From NCBI GenBank assembly GCA_038144595.1, contig JAYQOB010000008.1:151871-215870 (forward strand): a stretch of 64,000 nt of DNA, written 5' to 3'. The notes beneath the pieces were generated by a model. The model saw only the letters and a program-made list of their open reading frames with translations. It did no database searches and was not told the DNA's origin. This document shows, one piece after another, positions 36,330 to 43,316 of this stretch. Every line of letters begins with the position of its first letter. Positions within the stretch are counted from its first letter, which is position 1. The stretch is from Candidatus Poseidoniales archaeon. GTDB taxonomy: Archaea > Thermoplasmatota > Poseidoniia > Poseidoniales > Poseidoniaceae. The position numbers and the translations under genes were made by a program.

Positions 36330-37195
36330 ATGAGCGACCTCTACGGATTGAAACTTGAGCCCATGCCAAACCGACTTGTCAACTACGGTGTGACCGACAA
36401 CGGCATCGCCGTCATTGAACTCACGTCCGATTCGGCCGGTGCTCCCTTGAGGGTCCCAACGACCGCTCGCCCAACACCTACACTCACGGCATGATGCGAG
36501 ACATCGACGAAGCCATCGTCCGTGCTCGTTTCGACGACAGCGTCACCTGCATCGTCCTCACCGGCAACGGTGCCTCGTTCTTCTCAGCGGGTGCTTCCAT
36601 CCAGATGCTGAACAGCGTCAGCCCCGGCTTCAAGTACAACTTCTGCCTTCACGCCAACGAAACCCTCTCTCGCCTCGAGCAGACGGCCAAGCTTGTCGTG
36701 TGCGCCATCAACGGCCACGCCGTCGGCGGTGGACTTGAAATCGCCATGGCGGCCGACATCCGCATCGCTCGCAAGAACTCCGGGAAGGTTGGCCTGCCTG
36801 AGATCAACCTCGGTGTGCTCGCCGGAACCGGCGGTACCGCTCGCCTCACCCGCCTCATCGGCAAGGCCAAGGCCCTCGAGATGATGGTCACCGGCGAACT
36901 GATGTCCTTTGAGGACGCTCACGCTTGCAACCTCATCAACCACATCTGGGAAGGCGACCCCGATGACTTCCGCCGAGACATCCTTGACTGGTGCAGCCAG
37001 TTCACCCTGCCCAACAAGGCCGTCAAGGCCGTTGGCAACATCAAGCGCTCCTGTCAAACCGGTCCTGAAATTCCCTTCGAGTACCACTTGGCACTCGAGC
37101 GTGAGCTCCAAGCCGCCCTCTTCAATAGCAGCGACGCCAAGGAAGGCATCGCCGCTTACGTTGAGAAGCGTGTGGCCAACTTCACCGGTCAGTGA
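36330..37195 (+). CDS. enoyl-CoA hydratase (crotonase family), frame-shifted near 36450-36460
   Basis: MSDLYGLKLEPMPNRLVNYGVTDNGIAVIELTSDS... is in frame A. ...NDRSPNTYTHGMMRDIDEAIVRARFDDSVTCIVLTGNG...CAINGHAVGGGLEIAMAADIRIA is in frame B. Confidence 0.7.
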
Positions 37196-38142
37196 ACTTC
37201 GGCGTGGTACCCATGGACAACATCCACGTTCCAGCCGACGTTCCCGACGAGTTGATCGAGACCTACCTCGACAACATGGCCGCCGCCACCGCGGGCACGG
37301 GCAGCATGAACCTCTTCGCTTGCGACCAGAAAATCGAACACCTGAACGACGATTTCTACGACGGCGGCAAGACCATTCCGCTCTCGTCGAACGACCCCGG
37401 GCATTTGTTTGAGATCGGTGCACGCGCCCACGCCGACGGCACCATCGGTGTCCTCGCCGGTCAGTGCGGTCTCATCGCCCAGTACGCTCGAGACCACCCC
37501 GACGTGCCCTACCTCGTGAAGTTGAACTCCAAGTCTCACCTGGTCAAGACCGCTCAGCGCGACCCCATCAGTCAGGCCCTTTGGGACATTGACGACGTGA
37601 TGTCGCTGGTCCACAACGGCATCAACGTGGTCGGTATCGGCTACACCGTGTACATCGGCAGCGAATACGAGCATGAGATGCTGACCGAAGCCGCTCACTT
37701 CATTCGCCAGGCCCACGAACTCGGGATGATTTCGGTCGTCTGGATGTACCCCCGCGGTCAGGCTGTTGCCGACGAGAAAGACCCGCAACTGATCTCGGGC
37801 GCCGCAGGCGTTGCCAGTTGCATCGGTGCGGACTTTGCCAAGGTCAACTACCCCAAGGCCTTCGAGGGCATGACGCAACCTGAATCTCTGAGGATCGCTG
37901 TTGAGGCCGCAGGTCGCACGGGCATTATCTGCTCGGGCGGTGGTTCGCTCCCTCCACGTGACTTCCTTCAGCGCCTGTACGATCAAATGGCCGTTTCCGG
38001 CTGTCGAGGCGCTGCGACCGGTCGCAACATCCACCAGAAGACAACCGAGGAAGCCGTTCGCATGACGGCTGCCTGCCACGCGATCATTTGCGAAGGTGCC
38101 TCGGTTGACGAGGCCATGGCCATCTTCTTTGAAGGCAATTGA
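37192..38142 (+). CDS. fba: class I fructose-bisphosphate aldolase (archaeal DhnA/Fba type)
   Basis: VWMYPRG, GADFAKVNY (Schiff-base Lys region), ICSGGGS and GRNIHQ motifs. Confidence 0.75.
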   Translation: MNFGVVPMDNIHVPADVPDELIETYLDNMAAATAGTGSMNLFACDQKIEHLNDDFYDGGKTIPLSSNDPGHLFEIGARAHADGTIGVLAGQCGLIAQYARDHPDVPYLVKLNSKSHLVKTAQRDPISQALWDIDDVMSLVHNGINVVGIGYTVYIGSEYEHEMLTEAAHFIRQAHELGMISVVWMYPRGQAVADEKDPQLISGAAGVASCIGADFAKVNYPKAFEGMTQPESLRIAVEAAGRTGIICSGGGSLPPRDFLQRLYDQMAVSGCRGAATGRNIHQKTTEEAVRMTAACHAIICEGASVDEAMAIFFEGN

Positions 38143-38189
38143 AATTCATCCGGTCCTAGATTCTCATGAATCACAGGGTAGCGAGTGAT

Positions 38190-38245
38190 TCGAAAGCCCT
38201 GCGAGCCCTCTGATTGGGTCAAAACGAATCAGTGGGCTTGTCGGA
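38190..38245. repeat. left terminal inverted repeat of the AT-rich island, with an internal hairpin (agccctctgatt-loop-aatcagtgggct)
   Basis: ~50/55 nt match to the reverse complement of 40043-40100. Confidence 0.7.
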
Positions 38246-40042
38246 TTATCTGATTCACCCCATTGAATAAGGATTGAACAATGTACCAATTGGATTAATT
38301 AAAATTCATTCGCATTAAGCATTCGTTAGGATCATCTTGTGATTTGGGAAATGCTTGGAAAAAAGCAGAGAAATGGCCATCAGAAGATCCTGAACCTTCC
38401 GCATCTGTTGTCAAAAGAAAAGAGAGCGCTTCATCAAACATGACGCAATATCGTTTGGGATTTATTCCAACTCATGATCAAGGACAAGTCTTTCGTAATT
38501 GTTCTCCATGGACTGGGAAAAAAATGCTGGAGGGTATTTCCCGGCACTACGAGGACTTAATGGGTGCATATTGATCCCGTTGAAACCATCTTCGACGATG
38601 TTTCGACCCTTCAGTGGGCTAATGAGATGAAGAGGTGTCAATTTGATTGAGACATCAATCATAACAGATGAGATTAATCAGTCGTCTGGCAAAGGCGTTA
38701 GACAAGTGAAGAAATTCAAAATTCGATATTTCTTGCGAAAGTCAACAAATACTCAATTTGAAGAAAATTGTATTCCAAATTCAGCAACGGGAATGCACAA
38801 ATTCCATTCCTTGGATGATTTCGACTGAGTTTTGATGATTCCAACAAACAAATGCCAATGCATCAAATTCTAATCCGTTCTCGGTTTCTGCTTCCCAAGC
38901 GAGATTCACACTGAATTAGCCGAAACAAATGAACATTTAATTGTGTTGCAAATCCGTTGATATCAAAATCAACATGGCTTATTTTCGTGGTTTGGTTCAA
39001 GAACTCATGCATCAATCATTGTTGCCCATCAAAACATCCAGTTAACAATTTTCAATTTGTAATCACAAGGATTCGCAGGAAAACACCAATTCGTCGATGA
39101 ATTTGCAGCATGTTTAATGCATGGTTCAATCCGTTAATCGTTTTCTTTTAAATTCCATCACCGATGGATTTCGCTCGGCAGAAATGAGCATTTTCCTCAC
39201 GCTTAAACCAATTTTCAACAACAATCCATTGGACATGCTCCCTGCATCGTTCCATTCTTAGCACCAATTCTGATTCAGCGCTAAACCAACAATCATTATG
39301 AAAAAAAATACGTTCACTCTTTGTGATATGGAAAAGCAGATTCCAGATTGAATGGAACAAGAGGACAAGAATGTTGAAATTTGGACATGCTCATACCATT
39401 TCTTATGAAGATTAAAATCTGAACTCATATTGCAAGATTTATTTTCTTAGGGAAAATTGATGTTCCAGATTGAAATTCATCAGGTCCTGTTAATCTCAAT
39501 CCGTCAATTTTGGACTCGAAAACATTGTGTAAGCATGGAGGACTGCTCACTACACAGGAAAAACGTTATAATCTGAGCAGACAGATGAGTGAAAGGATAA
39601 ATTGGTACTCTGCCGGGATTCAAATGATTATCTCCATGGGCAAATCAATTTTTGGATCCGAGGATGGAAAGGAGAAACATCAACGAAGTATCTCTTTCTT
39701 GCTTGACCATTGTATCGGAATTTGGTTCTCATTGGTTTTTTCACACTTTTGGATTCGGGCACGAGTCCAATTCAAATTTTTCTTCGTCCCAATCATGGAA
39801 TGTGAATTTTCTTGTCGTAGTCGTATTGGCAGATCGTTCACTCTCTGGCTCCTGTAAAAACAACTCCAAAACAAGTGGCGAGAATACCTCTTCATTGGAT
39901 AAAGGGAAAAAAACGACATAAGCACATGGCTCACAATTTCTTGGAATTTAGCAAAACAAAAATCGATTCTTTTCGTCATGTTTCTGCGGCTTGCATTGGC
40001 GAAATCCGTTGATTCAATCTTTATCTAACCGAATGAGGGTCA

Positions 40043-40100
40043 ATGCACAAACCCACTGATTCGTTTTGACCTCATCAGAGGGCTCGCAGTGGGCTTTGTC
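40043..40100. repeat. right terminal inverted repeat of the AT-rich island
   Basis: Reverse complement matches 38190-38245: aaagccc..tgcgagccctctgat..ggtcaaaacgaatcagtggg. Confidence 0.7.
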
Positions 40101-40214
40101 ACTAGCCTACCGTCTGCTTAGGTCTCCACGTAGCCGGATCTTTGAGTGAGGAGGTTCCCCTCCGTCACGGCTGTGCCTTGAGAGAGACGGCGGCAGGGCG
40201 TCGAGTTGGTGAAC

Positions 40215-40538
40215 TCAGAGTTTCTCATCGCTGTTGGTCATGAAGTTGCCTTCACTGTCAACGATGATGGGCGTTCCCTCGACCCACTCAGGGCAGTTCT
40301 CTGACACCCAGGTGCGGGTGGCCCATTCACAGATGTCATAGCCGCCAGACAGGATGCCGGAGCGCTTGATGTAGCCGACCTTGACGATGTCCTTGTCCTT
40401 GGAGAGCACGTTGCCCAGCTGCTGGCTGGTGGTGCCATGACGCATGGTGCTGTTGATGTACTCCAGAATCTCTGCAGTGTTTCGTGGTCGATCGCCTAAG
40501 AATTTCTTGATTTTTTCACGGATGCGTGTTGTTTTCAT
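40215..40538 (-). CDS. small winged-helix (wHTH) DNA-binding protein (107 aa)
   Basis: TAEILEYINSTMRHGTTSQQLGNVLSKDKDIVKVG helix-turn-helix-like segment. Intermediate GC. Abuts the right IR of the island. Confidence 0.45.
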   Translation of the reverse strand: MKTTRIREKIKKFLGDRPRNTAEILEYINSTMRHGTTSQQLGNVLSKDKDIVKVGYIKRSGILSGGYDICEWATRTWVSENCPEWVEGTPIIVDSEGNFMTNSDEKL

Positions 40539-40713
40539 GGTTGGTCCCTCCTGTCATTTTTTGAGCGGCCTGATTGGAAATGTGCCACTAAGGTTGAGGA
40601 GCGAGGCCGCTGATATAATGGTTCCTCCTCGGATGAACGATTTGGTTACGTTTGATGACTCAATTGCGGTGTATTTCCAACACTGCGGTACGAATATGTA
40701 AGTTATTTTTCAC

Positions 40714-40724
40714 AGTTCCACTGG
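40714..40724. promoter_or_regulatory. perfect archaeal mini-ORB-like dyad TTCCAGTGGAA (read on the minus strand) in an AT-rich divergent intergenic region
   Basis: gttccactggaaatg. Identical to the canonical origin recognition box core bound by Orc1/Cdc6 in Sulfolobus and Pyrococcus origins. Confidence 0.45.
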
Positions 40725-40808
40725 AAATGTATAACTAAATTTAACTTCAAAGATTTTTTATTTGCAAAAGCACTGGCCAAACCACTCCCGGGCATGCCAA
40801 GGTGACTT

Positions 40809-43316
40809 GTGATGAAACATCGCACCATCCGATCAACCGCTCAACGCCAAATTCTGGTCTGGTTGCGCCATGGTCCCTCAACGGTTTCAGAGATCGCCAA
40901 GCAATTCTCCATGCGAATGCCCCACGCCTCGCTTGCATGCCGACAACTGAGAGAGGCTGGGCTGATAACACGAGACGAACGCGGAGGGCTTCGAAACGCG
41001 CCCATCTACCTGAGCCAGTTCGGTCATGAACGGCTCGAAGAGGACGCGCTCGGAAAAATGCAGCAGTATGCGGGGGCTCTCGCCTCATCTCGCCATCCCT
41101 TGGTGCTTCATGCCGATGAGACCAACGTGCTCCTTGCTTACATGGAACCCCCTGAATCCTCCTTCGTTTTCGTCGGCGAACGACCAGGTGATGGCTCCAC
41201 TTCCTCCAGTGGAAATTTAGGGGGGGCGTGGGTCTTGGCGCCACGCGATGCTGTCACGTGGTACACGCTCAGTGATGCAACCGTTTCTGCACCTCCTGCG
41301 CCGAGAGAATCCAGCACGCTGGCAGCGTTTGAATTGACGCAACAACGCATTGGTTTGGTCCGTGGCGTTGTGCTCGAGCAGCGCGGCCATCGCGGTTTGG
41401 TAGAAGGGCAGTCGTTCACCATGCGTGCACGACCAGGCCTGCCCGGCCCCTCCTTCCTCTCACAAGGTGAAGTTGAGATTGGCACCTTACCGGGGTTGAA
41501 CGAAGGCTATGCACCGTCCGGCGGACTCTTGGCCCACCTTCGGTCCGCTGCCCATCGAACCTTGTTGCTTGGAAACATCACGCATGGCGCCTTTGCGCTC
41601 AGCGACTGTCCTTCCTCCTCACCTGTGCCGTTGCCGTATGCTGTCCTGCTGCACTGGCTTGCATTGAAACACCCGCGCATGGCGTTGGCTCGGCGCCAAG
41701 AACGTTATCTTGAGTTGGTCAAGGAACTTGAGACGAAGGTCAACCAAACGACCTCATCGCTCATGCGTTCACTTCTTCTCGAGTTCGGAGAGCAACAATG
41801 GACCCATGATGTGTTGCGGCCCGGTTGGTTCAACACCCACGGTGTGGGTGAGCGAGCCGTTGTGGCTGTGCTTCACCACGTCATGGAGGTGGGTTGGCTT
41901 CCATTTGTGATGGATTGGGCCTTTGAACAACCGAATCCTCCAGTTTTGTCTCGTTGGCTCACCCACCCGGCCTGCAGAGCGGTGGTGACGCGCCATGGTT
42001 CTCTACCCGAATCAAAGGGGAGCGCCCTGTTGGTTGACGGTCAAGACTTGGGTACGGTTGACGTTGAGTTGAGCAGATCGGTGAAGTTTGACCTCAACCT
42101 GAACCTCGACGAGGTGGAGTCGAATGCTTCTCGCCAACGAATGGATGCGGTGCCGAGCAACGCAGAAGAGTTGTTGACCGCCTCAGTTCGTCATCCAGAA
42201 CAGGTGTTTTCGTCGCCTTCACCGGAGGGATTGACTGGTCAGCGCCTCACCGAAGCGCTCCACCTGTTCCCGACGGGCGATGAGGGCAGAGCCAATGAGC
42301 TGGAATCCACCGACCCACTGGCGTCGTGGATCGCCTCGCCTCCGAAGCATCGTCCTGCCCGGTGGATTCGTCTGCGAGACCGCCTTCCCGGCGGTTGGGT
42401 TGAACTGATGCCCGTCCACGATGTGCCCTTGGCCGATCTTCCCTTTGCCTTGGCTTCAGGCGGGCGTTCATGGCGGCGTCAGGCACTCCAGCGAATTCAT
42501 GCCGAGGCAGCCCACGACATCACCACCGTGCTGCGCTGGCGTCAGCATCTCCAACCGGACGACGGGCATCGTTTTGCTGTGGCCACCTGCATGCTATGTT
42601 CGCTCACCCCTTCGCTTTCAGAGCATGTTGCTCTGTTCGAGGACGCTAGTCGTGCATGGTTTGAGGCTCCCATGAACGAGCAAGATGTGTTGGAATGCCT
42701 CTTCGGGCCGTCCACAACGGGTCACGATCAGGCCTTGCTTCAGCGGTGGATGGACCGTTCCATGCTCCAGCCAAAAGGTTCCATGTTGCGTGCGTGGGCC
42801 ATCGGGTTGGGCATCGCCCAACGCCAGGAACCATGGCTGCCTGAAACAGAGCGAACCCTCATGGAAGTGCTTCCCTCGACGTGGTGGTCACCTTTTGCGC
42901 AGCGTTGGCTCACGACCCAACTGTCCAGTCAAACCGGCCGCACGTGGCTCGCCAACTTCGAGTGCAGTTGGCCTGCCTTGTTGGCCCGAGCCCACGGCGA
43001 GCGTTCCCTCTTCCCCGGCCATGCTGGTGAACACCCCGGCTTCACCCTTGACTCCACCTCGCTTCTTCCGGTTCAACTTCTGCCTGAGGGGGTTGGTAAG
43101 GCGGCATTGACGGACGTGCACGCCATGGTGCATGCGCTTGAACAGGGCGCGCCGGTCCCGGTCCTCTCGACGCATCCGTCGGCGGGTTGGCTGGTCCGTC
43201 CGGTTGAACAATGGCCCGTGTTTGGAAGGGATGTCATGGCCGTGGGGGACCCGGACATCGGCGAGGTGTTGTTCACGCGGAGCTTCCACGCCCGCCATCT
43301 ATCCTCACGCCGATGA
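40809..43316 (+). CDS. large hypothetical protein (835 aa) with an N-terminal winged-helix DNA-binding domain and no recognisable catalytic motif
   Basis: STVSEIAKQFSMRMPHASLACRQLREAGLITRDERGG (ArsR/MarR-like wHTH) at residues ~20-60. The remainder is Leu/Ala/Arg/Trp-rich with no Walker motifs. Confidence 0.55.
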   Translation: MMKHRTIRSTAQRQILVWLRHGPSTVSEIAKQFSMRMPHASLACRQLREAGLITRDERGGLRNAPIYLSQFGHERLEEDALGKMQQYAGALASSRHPLVLHADETNVLLAYMEPPESSFVFVGERPGDGSTSSSGNLGGAWVLAPRDAVTWYTLSDATVSAPPAPRESSTLAAFELTQQRIGLVRGVVLEQRGHRGLVEGQSFTMRARPGLPGPSFLSQGEVEIGTLPGLNEGYAPSGGLLAHLRSAAHRTLLLGNITHGAFALSDCPSSSPVPLPYAVLLHWLALKHPRMALARRQERYLELVKELETKVNQTTSSLMRSLLLEFGEQQWTHDVLRPGWFNTHGVGERAVVAVLHHVMEVGWLPFVMDWAFEQPNPPVLSRWLTHPACRAVVTRHGSLPESKGSALLVDGQDLGTVDVELSRSVKFDLNLNLDEVESNASRQRMDAVPSNAEELLTASVRHPEQVFSSPSPEGLTGQRLTEALHLFPTGDEGRANELESTDPLASWIASPPKHRPARWIRLRDRLPGGWVELMPVHDVPLADLPFALASGGRSWRRQALQRIHAEAAHDITTVLRWRQHLQPDDGHRFAVATCMLCSLTPSLSEHVALFEDASRAWFEAPMNEQDVLECLFGPSTTGHDQALLQRWMDRSMLQPKGSMLRAWAIGLGIAQRQEPWLPETERTLMEVLPSTWWSPFAQRWLTTQLSSQTGRTWLANFECSWPALLARAHGERSLFPGHAGEHPGFTLDSTSLLPVQLLPEGVGKAALTDVHAMVHALEQGAPVPVLSTHPSAGWLVRPVEQWPVFGRDVMAVGDPDIGEVLFTRSFHARHLSSRR

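Follow-up and report, generated by a model that had tools for sequence, protein, structure and literature searches.

An 11-bp word repeated on one strand of a gene-free insert in a marine Poseidonia archaeon: candidate protein-binding sites on accessory DNA near a probable replication origin

Within a 64,000-nucleotide stretch of contig JAYQOB010000008.1 (NCBI GenBank assembly GCA_038144595.1; the whole stretch is called the window below), which its gene neighbourhood and 90 related loci assign to a Poseidonia species (Marine Group IIa, Poseidoniaceae), a DeoC/DhnA-type aldolase gene and a gene for a DUF3860 protein converge on an AT-rich, gene-free island of 2.07 kb. The island fills the slot between the two stop codons exactly, and its GC content, 38-40% against 59% for the genome, falls to 29% at 39401-39500. 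A preliminary description of this DNA had noted five same-strand copies of the motif AATCCGT inside the island, and had read them as a repeated protein-binding site and as an iteron array of the kind that marks origins of replication. All five copies are present as quoted, on the + strand and inside 1.14 kb (Table 1). They form the core of a longer word, and on the reading that we prefer, tentatively and with a probability of about 0.4, these words would be a set of binding sites for a DNA-binding protein on imported accessory DNA. They are not the initiator sites of the chromosome.

Four of the five copies lengthen to the non-palindromic 11-mer AATCCGTYRAT, two of them in the form AAATCCGTTGAT and two in the form TCAATCCGTYAAT, and the remaining copy, at 38872, has the 7-mer core only. 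When a one-mismatch variant of the 11-mer at 39088 is included, the start-to-start distances are 79, 137, 40, 370 and 505 bp, so that the spacing is irregular, as first described, and is neither tandem nor helically phased. The overlap of the copy at 38951 with a perfect palindrome, TTGATATCAA, was likewise borne out. The conserved block spans about one helical turn and has sharp edges; the flanks surrounding it are unrelated among the copies, and sensitive self-alignment of the island detected no longer repeat unit around them. Weaker look-alikes of the motif occur at 39223 (AATCCATTGGA) and 38574 (ATCCCGTTGAA). A promoter-like context common to the copies was considered and rejected, as TTTAAT followed by nine nucleotides precedes only two of them.

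Table 1. Features of the island, its flanking genes and the neighbouring origin recognition boxes (ORBs); positions are those of the window.
Feature	Position	Strand	Remarks
Aldolase gene, left slot anchor	37192..38142	+	DeoC/DhnA-type; Pfam PF01791
21-nt direct repeat, copy 1	38137..38157	+	AATTGAAATTCATCCGGTCCT; spans the aldolase stop codon
AT-rich non-coding island	38146..40214		2069 bp
Left inverted-repeat arm	38169..38278	+	core 38199-38241; 3' of the aldolase gene and in sense with it
Motif copy 1	38872..38878	+	7-mer core only, AATCCGTtctc
Motif copy 2	38951..38961	+	AATCCGTTGAT; overlaps the palindrome; TTTAAT 9 nt upstream
One-mismatch 11-mer variant	39088..39098	+	AATTCGTCGAT
Motif copy 3	39128..39138	+	AATCCGTTAAT; TTTAAT 9 nt upstream
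21-nt direct repeat, copy 2	39468..39488	+	GATTGAAATTCATCAGGTCCT; starts 1331 bp from the start of copy 1
Motif copy 4	39498..39508	+	AATCCGTCAAT; 10 nt past the internal copy of the 21-nt direct repeat
Motif copy 5	40003..40013	+	AATCCGTTGAT; touches the inner end of the right inverted-repeat arm
Right inverted-repeat arm	40013..40119	-	core 40047-40089; 3' of the DUF3860 gene and in sense with it
DUF3860 gene, right slot anchor	40215..40538	-	Pfam PF12976; PDB 2od5
Mini-ORB	40715..40728	+	GTTCCACTGGAAAT; conserved DUF3860/winged-helix intergenic region
Full ORB with G-string	41205..41227	+	CTCCAGTGGAAATTTAGGGGGGG; in the 5' part of an 835-aa winged helix-turn-helix reading frame

AATCCGT is the joint commonest 7-mer of the island, and AATCCGTT is its commonest 8-mer. 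Under Markov models from which the motif had been masked, 0.10-0.14 copies of the 7-mer are expected per strand in the 1.8-kb core of the island, and 5 were observed; with 303 kb of low-GC Poseidoniaceae DNA as the background, the expectation is 0.09 per strand. For the 11-mer AATCCGTYRAT the motif-masked models predict 0.004-0.005 copies per strand, and 4 were observed. The earlier statement that the 7-mer exceeds chance therefore held, and the check that had been proposed for it, a comparison with Markov and AT-matched backgrounds, gave a local enrichment of about 50-fold over both. The Poisson probability of the 7-mer count lies between 5e-8 and 4e-7, which Bonferroni correction for every 7-mer raises to about 1e-3 to 7e-3; for the 11-mer, P is about 1e-11, and roughly 1e-2 when corrected over about 5e8 patterns, by our own count. 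In an empirical test over all k-mers, which took the best k-mer of each shuffle, the observed value was not attained in any of 500 order-1 shuffles. When 11-mer neighbourhoods were counted without regard to word composition, the result was not significant, with 10-18% of nulls reaching 4, because AT-only words cluster easily. The clustering of AATCCGT is beyond chance, real but not overwhelming.

The excess is confined to the island, since the 7-mer is not enriched across the whole window (13 seen, 8.7 expected). The exact 11-mer pattern is absent from the other 62 kb of the window, which contain two one-mismatch matches. The comparison set consisted of 90 related Poseidoniaceae loci (L001-L090, 1.1 Mb); a DUF3860 search of genome contigs gave 80 loci, none of which has the island. 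A search of related DNA for the motif, which the preliminary description had suggested, returned the exact 11-mer pattern once in these 1.1 Mb, and same-strand copies of the 7-mer within 1.2 kb never number more than two in any related locus.

The aldolase and DUF3860 genes form a syntenic pair across the family, and the slot between them ranges from 120 bp to 5.4 kb. In the closest genome, the conspecific L023, the flanks are 96-97% identical to those of the window and the slot is an 843-bp segment with a gene for a 262-aa ion channel; homology between the two ends at 38145 and restarts at 40215. Other species carry an acetyltransferase gene, a gene for a 706-aa protein, other open reading frames (ORFs) or nothing in the slot. 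The 706-aa gene has a low GC content and encodes a secreted and membrane-anchored protein with thrombospondin-type repeats. All filled slots but that of the window hold a long ORF, and the remaining slots are empty; 80 Poseidoniaceae species genomes in addition to L023 show one state or the other. The interior of the island was found in none of the 90 related loci, L023 included, and the 180 nt adjoining DUF3860 are 66-76% homologous to the same place in the species with the 706-aa gene. Searches of metagenome contigs for a two-motif pattern gave seven matches, all of them unrelated chance matches; three 20-21-mers of the island had no match in viral contigs, and a distant blastn search of the island against plasmids and phages gave none.

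Some further observations concern these relatives. The 706-aa gene is split into two ORFs in three of the seven assemblies that have it (L001, 10521-12261; L007, 10522-12568; L008, 10522-12642), either as real pseudogenes or through indel errors in pilon-polished long-read assemblies. The DUF3860 protein, of 107 aa and unknown function, has index entries in 322 blocks of the assembly collection, and it is 100% identical across several species whose neighbouring DNA is only 76-86% identical. One locus, L014 (NZEQ01000010.1), lies on a contig labelled as a Verrucomicrobiales bacterium metagenome-assembled genome; it has the archaeal DUF3860 locus, with 99% protein identity, and is probably mis-binned Poseidoniaceae DNA.

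The flanks carry a record of how the island may have arrived. Over the greater part of the aldolase gene and in the 5' half of DUF3860, the window differs from L023 by 1-2%. Close to the island the difference grows to 6-7%, in the final ~150 nt of the aldolase gene and in the 200 nt at the 3' end of DUF3860 (37990-38142 and 40215-40420); the aldolase also ends in IFFEGN, with an extra Phe codon, in place of IFEGN. This rise is the footprint of a recombination tract that came in along with the island from a more distant, unsampled lineage possessing both flanking genes, and such graded divergence argues against mis-assembly of the island. Three frameshifting indels were noticed elsewhere in the contig: C3 in place of the C4 of close relatives in the enoyl-CoA hydratase gene (36443), a 2-nt deletion relative to close relatives in a DUF359/CTP-transferase gene (43730), and CG in place of CGCG in orc1 (46996), which splits that gene into ORFs of 217 and 230 aa. 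All three are probably errors of long-read assembly; if the last were real, orc1 would be a pseudogene.

An inverted repeat marks the two ends of the island; its arms show 93% complementarity over 43 nt, and the match extends to 113 nt at 74%. Each arm folds as a hairpin with the stem CCCTCTGATT / AATCAGTGGG. RNA-fold z scores are -3.1 to -3.25 for the left arm on the + strand only, and -2.6 to -2.95 for the right arm on the - strand only, so that each hairpin reaches significant stability on one strand alone, the sense strand of its upstream gene. A homologous hairpin element is present as one copy 3' of DUF3860 in L001-4 and L006-8. We infer that the arms are 3'-end (terminator-like) elements of the two convergent genes, and not transposon ends. 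The possibility that the hairpin element is a dispersed repeat was rejected, as nhmmer and pattern searches of the 64-kb window and the 90 loci gave copies in the slot only. In L003 (12813-12835), and also in L001, L002, L004 and L006-L008, a perfect palindrome, TAATCAGAGGGGCCCTCTGATTA, occupies part of the gap that separates the 706-aa cargo gene from the aldolase gene; the palindrome has the stem word CCCTCTGATT in common with the window arms, and the slot borders of two species therefore carry related hairpins. There is also a 21-nt direct repeat, whose two copies differ by one mismatch, and which may represent a scar of the att type or the duplication of a junction.

The interior of the island is orphan, non-coding DNA. 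Each of the six frames contains about 30 stops, no stop type is specific to a frame, no ORF exceeds 115 aa, and the island has neither a codon-position GC signal nor periodicity. Crossing it without a stop requires 16-18 frame switches on either strand, as many as in Markov nulls, and a control gene requires 0. A search of 5.8 billion protein clusters with every stop-free segment of at least 30 aa from the six frames, together 2240 aa, gave nothing at E<=0.1; Rfam gave no match in the island at E<=1, and no tRNA was found there. RNA-fold z scores of interior windows lie between about -2.0 and +1.8, and values near -3 are seen only in the two end elements. Several explanations of this silence were tried and set aside. 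The interior is not a recognizable pseudogene of the relatives' cargo, as tblastn, tblastx and word-7 blastn against all slot cargoes left it without a match. A recoded stop codon would not open a frame, because TGA and TAA are found in every frame and no single reassignment removes them. The minimal number of frame switches equals random expectation, which speaks against a frameshift-ridden gene, and a handful of indels cannot account for the missing coding signal or for some 30 stops per frame. With no Rfam match and unremarkable interior folding, a structured non-coding RNA gene was rejected as well.

The archaeal ORB consensus is CTTCCAGTGGAAACGAAAGGGGT (PMC4153887, Table 2). The word AATCCGTYRAT lacks the TCCA..GGAA core of this element, and the best match to an ORB or mini-ORB (TTCCA.TGGAAA core) within the island has 3 mismatches in 12 positions. 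The ORBs of this locus lie outside the island, to its right. A full ORB with a G-string, CTCCAGTGGAAATTTAGGGGGGG, is found at the syntenic site in 60 of the 90 loci, in genomes with GC contents from 38% to 60%, and at no other place in the 1.1 Mb of related loci; across 55 distinct sequences it is the best-conserved DNA within 100 nt on either side. A mini-ORB, whose 13-nt core TTCCACTGGAAAT is unchanged in 23 loci, adjoins the AT-richest 100 bp of the conserved intergenic region between DUF3860 and the winged helix-turn-helix (wHTH) gene. This ORB and mini-ORB cluster, 0.5-1 kb to the right of the island, is the probable oriC of the family. It is present in relatives with and without any slot cargo, and orc1 lies 5.5 kb beyond it and 6.2 kb from the island. 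The region upstream of orc1 was rejected as an origin, being a 210-bp intergenic region without an ORB and not AT-rich, and no turn in GC skew was seen at the island. Since the island is missing from the conspecific L023 and from the 89 other loci, it is not the essential origin of the chromosome.

Several other observations concern the intergenic region between DUF3860 and the wHTH gene. It contains two TGGAAAT half-sites, at 40576-40582 (+) and 40679-40685 (-), and the region (40539-40808), like the 300 nt upstream of DUF3860 in 84 loci, has several blocks conserved across the family, namely GTTA..GTTA, GTAAC, GGAGGAAC.ATTATATCAGCGGCCTCGCTCC and GACAGGAGGGA. These blocks are probably divergent promoters, operators and the DUF3860 ribosome-binding site, interleaved with the mini-ORB. 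The DUF3860 protein, whose gene adjoins the ORB cluster, looks winged-helix-like in sequence, by eye only. A full-text literature search returned no description of the ORB cluster as the Poseidoniaceae origin, which is not proof that there is none, and nothing relevant on Poseidoniales origins or islands was found.

The preliminary description had thus been probably right in placing an origin in this neighbourhood, with conserved ORBs at 40715 and 41205, but the motif array is not what marks it. The array does not have the character of an origin array of iterons: its spacing is irregular, it has no initiator gene and no ORB core, and a conspecific genome does without the island. Nor did Orc1 and the adjacent wHTH proteins, which had been named as candidate binders, prove convincing. 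Orc1, DUF3860 and the wHTH proteins are conserved family-wide and the motif is not, and it is therefore unlikely that they have specific sites in strain-specific DNA.

How, then, might the repeated word be explained? On the reading that we prefer, the insert would be accessory DNA in the hypervariable slot where the aldolase and DUF3860 genes converge, having arrived by homologous recombination from another Poseidonia-like lineage with the same flanking genes, and it would be bracketed by the two inverted, hairpin-forming 3'-end elements of about 110 nt. The five copies of AATCCGT, as the core of an 11-bp word on one strand of this 2.07-kb gene-free insert, would be recognition sites for one sequence-specific DNA-binding protein acting on the accessory DNA, binding as a monomer or head-to-tail, and the island would be a cis-acting accessory module. 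The enrichment of the word, the non-coding state and strain specificity of the island, the recombination tracts in its flanks and the position of the ORBs elsewhere are all shown by the sequences, and we infer that a protein binds the word and what such binding would do. The earlier suggestion of a repeated protein-binding site stands insofar as a sharp-edged block of about one helical turn, set in unrelated flanks, is what such a site would look like. The pattern of variation in the motif is also informative. In one frame per strand, its variable positions Y and R fall at codon positions 3 and 1, and the peptides that would be read from it are S-V-[ND] on the + strand and I-[ND]-G-[FL] on the - strand. 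However, the triplets that would encode Gly (GGA), Ser (TCC) and Asn/Asp (xAC) are constant across the copies, although synonymous alternatives, which remain unused, would better match AT-rich DNA. The sharp edges of the block and its unvarying synonymous positions therefore point to DNA recognition more than to the remains of a coding repeat.

A number of points weigh against this reading. No binding protein has been identified, and no gene of the island could encode one; for a streamlined genome to retain 1.8 kb of functional non-coding DNA without a partner gene is unusual. A second genome with the island was not found in searches of relatives and metagenome contigs. The corrected significance of the clustering, about 1e-2 to 1e-3, is not overwhelming, and 4-6% of order-2 shuffles reach the observed value (P 0.04-0.06), although this model is trained on the motif itself and is conservative for that reason. 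The location of all five copies on one strand, taken alone, has P = 0.06. Finally, variable positions at codon positions 3 and 1 also fit a dead repeat-protein gene.

This last point leads to a view that we consider nearly as likely as a binding-site array, namely that the insert is a neutral relic, dead cargo in the form of a decayed gene or foreign non-coding DNA, and that the motif is an old internal repeat with no present function. The repeat might, for example, be the peptide I-[ND]-G-[FL] (- strand) or S-V-[ND] (+ strand) of a former repeat-containing surface protein, of which the look-alikes AATCCATTGGA and ATCCCGTTGAA would provide more xNG[FL] peptides. It is consistent with such decay that all other filled slots hold a gene, that the low-GC, repeat-rich 706-aa surface protein is carried, on the same strand, by the species whose slot shares the hairpin beside the 3' end of DUF3860 and the stem word CCCTCTGATT towards its aldolase end, and that the 706-aa gene is itself broken in L001, L007 and L008; that neither a function nor a partner of the island can be demonstrated also fits. 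On the other hand, residual similarity to the 706-aa gene or to the 5.8 billion protein clusters is zero, stops are fully random on both strands, and GC content gives no signal by codon position. Neutral decay would hardly leave seven bases unchanged in all five copies amid randomized flanks, and the supposed codons show no synonymous alternatives. A different and unlikely possibility is that the island is a captured extrachromosomal origin or centromere-like region, or an AT-rich extension of the neighbouring origin, and that the words are sites for an initiator or partition protein. Archaeal chromosomes are known to capture extrachromosomal origins, and the island offers AT-rich non-coding DNA, repeats in the same orientation, a low GC content that suggests a foreign source, a conserved ORB/mini-ORB cluster 0.5-1 kb away and orc1 at 6.2 kb. 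But there is no rep, orc or par gene in or beside it beyond those that island-free relatives also have, and an array with gaps of 40-505 bp and no ORB core is unlike iterons. The absence of the island from the conspecific genome and 89 other loci, the lack of plasmid, phage or viral contig matches and the lack of a GC-skew turn likewise speak against this origin or partition role.

The orientation of the copies could also be accounted for by recombination, if short cassettes had been inserted one after another by a site-specific mechanism, with the 11-mers and the 21-nt direct repeat as the core sites that remain; this would explain both the direct orientation of every copy and the irregular spacing. 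The direct repeat brackets 1331 bp, and its first copy overlaps the 3' end of a gene, here the aldolase gene, a frequent position of att sites, in a slot that swaps cargo and has hairpin elements at its borders. We regard this as very unlikely, because there is no integrase or recombinase nearby, the supposed cassettes of 40-505 bp are empty, the motif is found at the slot borders of no relative, and the divergence of the flanks points to ordinary homologous recombination. Least likely of these explanations is that the array is a compositional fluke of foreign AT-rich DNA, or a product of mis-assembly in an error-prone long-read contig. The three frameshifting indels in 11 kb of the contig, the confinement of the island to one contig, the order-2 shuffles and the composition-blind neighbourhood test are in its favor. 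Yet motif-masked and AT-matched backgrounds predict about 0.1 copies against the 5 seen, each junction coincides precisely with a stop codon and divergence is graded in the flanks on both sides, the corresponding slot of another species has homologs of the right-hand 180 nt and of both hairpins, and a few indels cannot produce some 30 stops per frame.

Should the 11-mers prove to be genuine binding sites, the island would be a rare example of a purely cis-acting, gene-free cassette that is exchanged between strains of a streamlined, abundant and uncultivated marine archaeon beside a probable origin, and what selects for the cassette would become the question; as dead cargo, it would be no more than a common remnant of a flexible island. 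A more elaborate version of the binding-site reading, which is speculative and has little probability in our estimation, is that this would be an origin-adjacent, laterally exchanged cassette whose polar 11-bp sites, bound by a protein of the host or of a mobile element, modulate events at the neighbouring ORB-defined oriC, and which differs between conspecific strains. Possible roles of such a cassette include a captured secondary origin, a centromere-like partition site, and a barrier to replication forks or to transcription. The ORB cluster is the more useful and more actionable result than the motif array, since the conserved ORB and mini-ORB would give a concrete position of oriC for Poseidoniaceae, for example in growth-rate estimates from metagenome coverage.

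Compared with known systems, the array resembles the iterons of plasmids and viruses in that a single short word recurs in direct orientation within non-coding, AT-rich DNA. Iterons are 17-22 bp long, tandem and helically phased, and stand beside a rep gene whose product binds them, whereas the island has an 11-bp word, gaps of 40-505 bp, no rep gene and no plasmid or virus match; it does have an AT-rich stretch such as the unwinding regions of iteron origins, but this feature is non-specific. Like the ORBs and mini-ORBs of Orc1/Cdc6 proteins, its words are short repeats dispersed around an AT-rich stretch near orc1, but AATCCGTYRAT shares no core with them and the true ORBs are outside the island. 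Partition arrays of the parC/parS type consist of several short sites in non-coding DNA, which are sometimes direct and unevenly spaced. The island likewise has multiple copies of a short site in non-coding DNA, but no gene of the ParA, ParB or AspA type is adjacent to it. Miniature inverted-repeat transposable elements (MITEs), which are non-autonomous transposons, are similar in that AT-rich non-coding DNA lies within inverted repeats, here of 113 nt. Unlike MITEs, the island is large, at 2 kb, the best-conserved part of its repeat is internal and not terminal, and each arm is a 3' element of the adjoining gene; no duplication is seen at the outer ends, and the element is not multicopy within the DNA searched, where only the two arms match in 64 kb and relatives have one copy in the same slot. 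The closest parallels are in the replacement-type flexible genomic islands of marine prokaryotes. These have in common with the present locus a fixed slot between syntenic genes with unrelated cargo in each strain or species, cargo of deviant, low GC content, homologous recombination in the flanks with raised divergence there, and a surface protein among the cargo of relatives. They differ from the window, whose cargo is 1.8 kb without any gene, with a repeated short word and an inverted pair of hairpins, and the island can be placed among them only as an atypical variant of a replacement-type flexible island.

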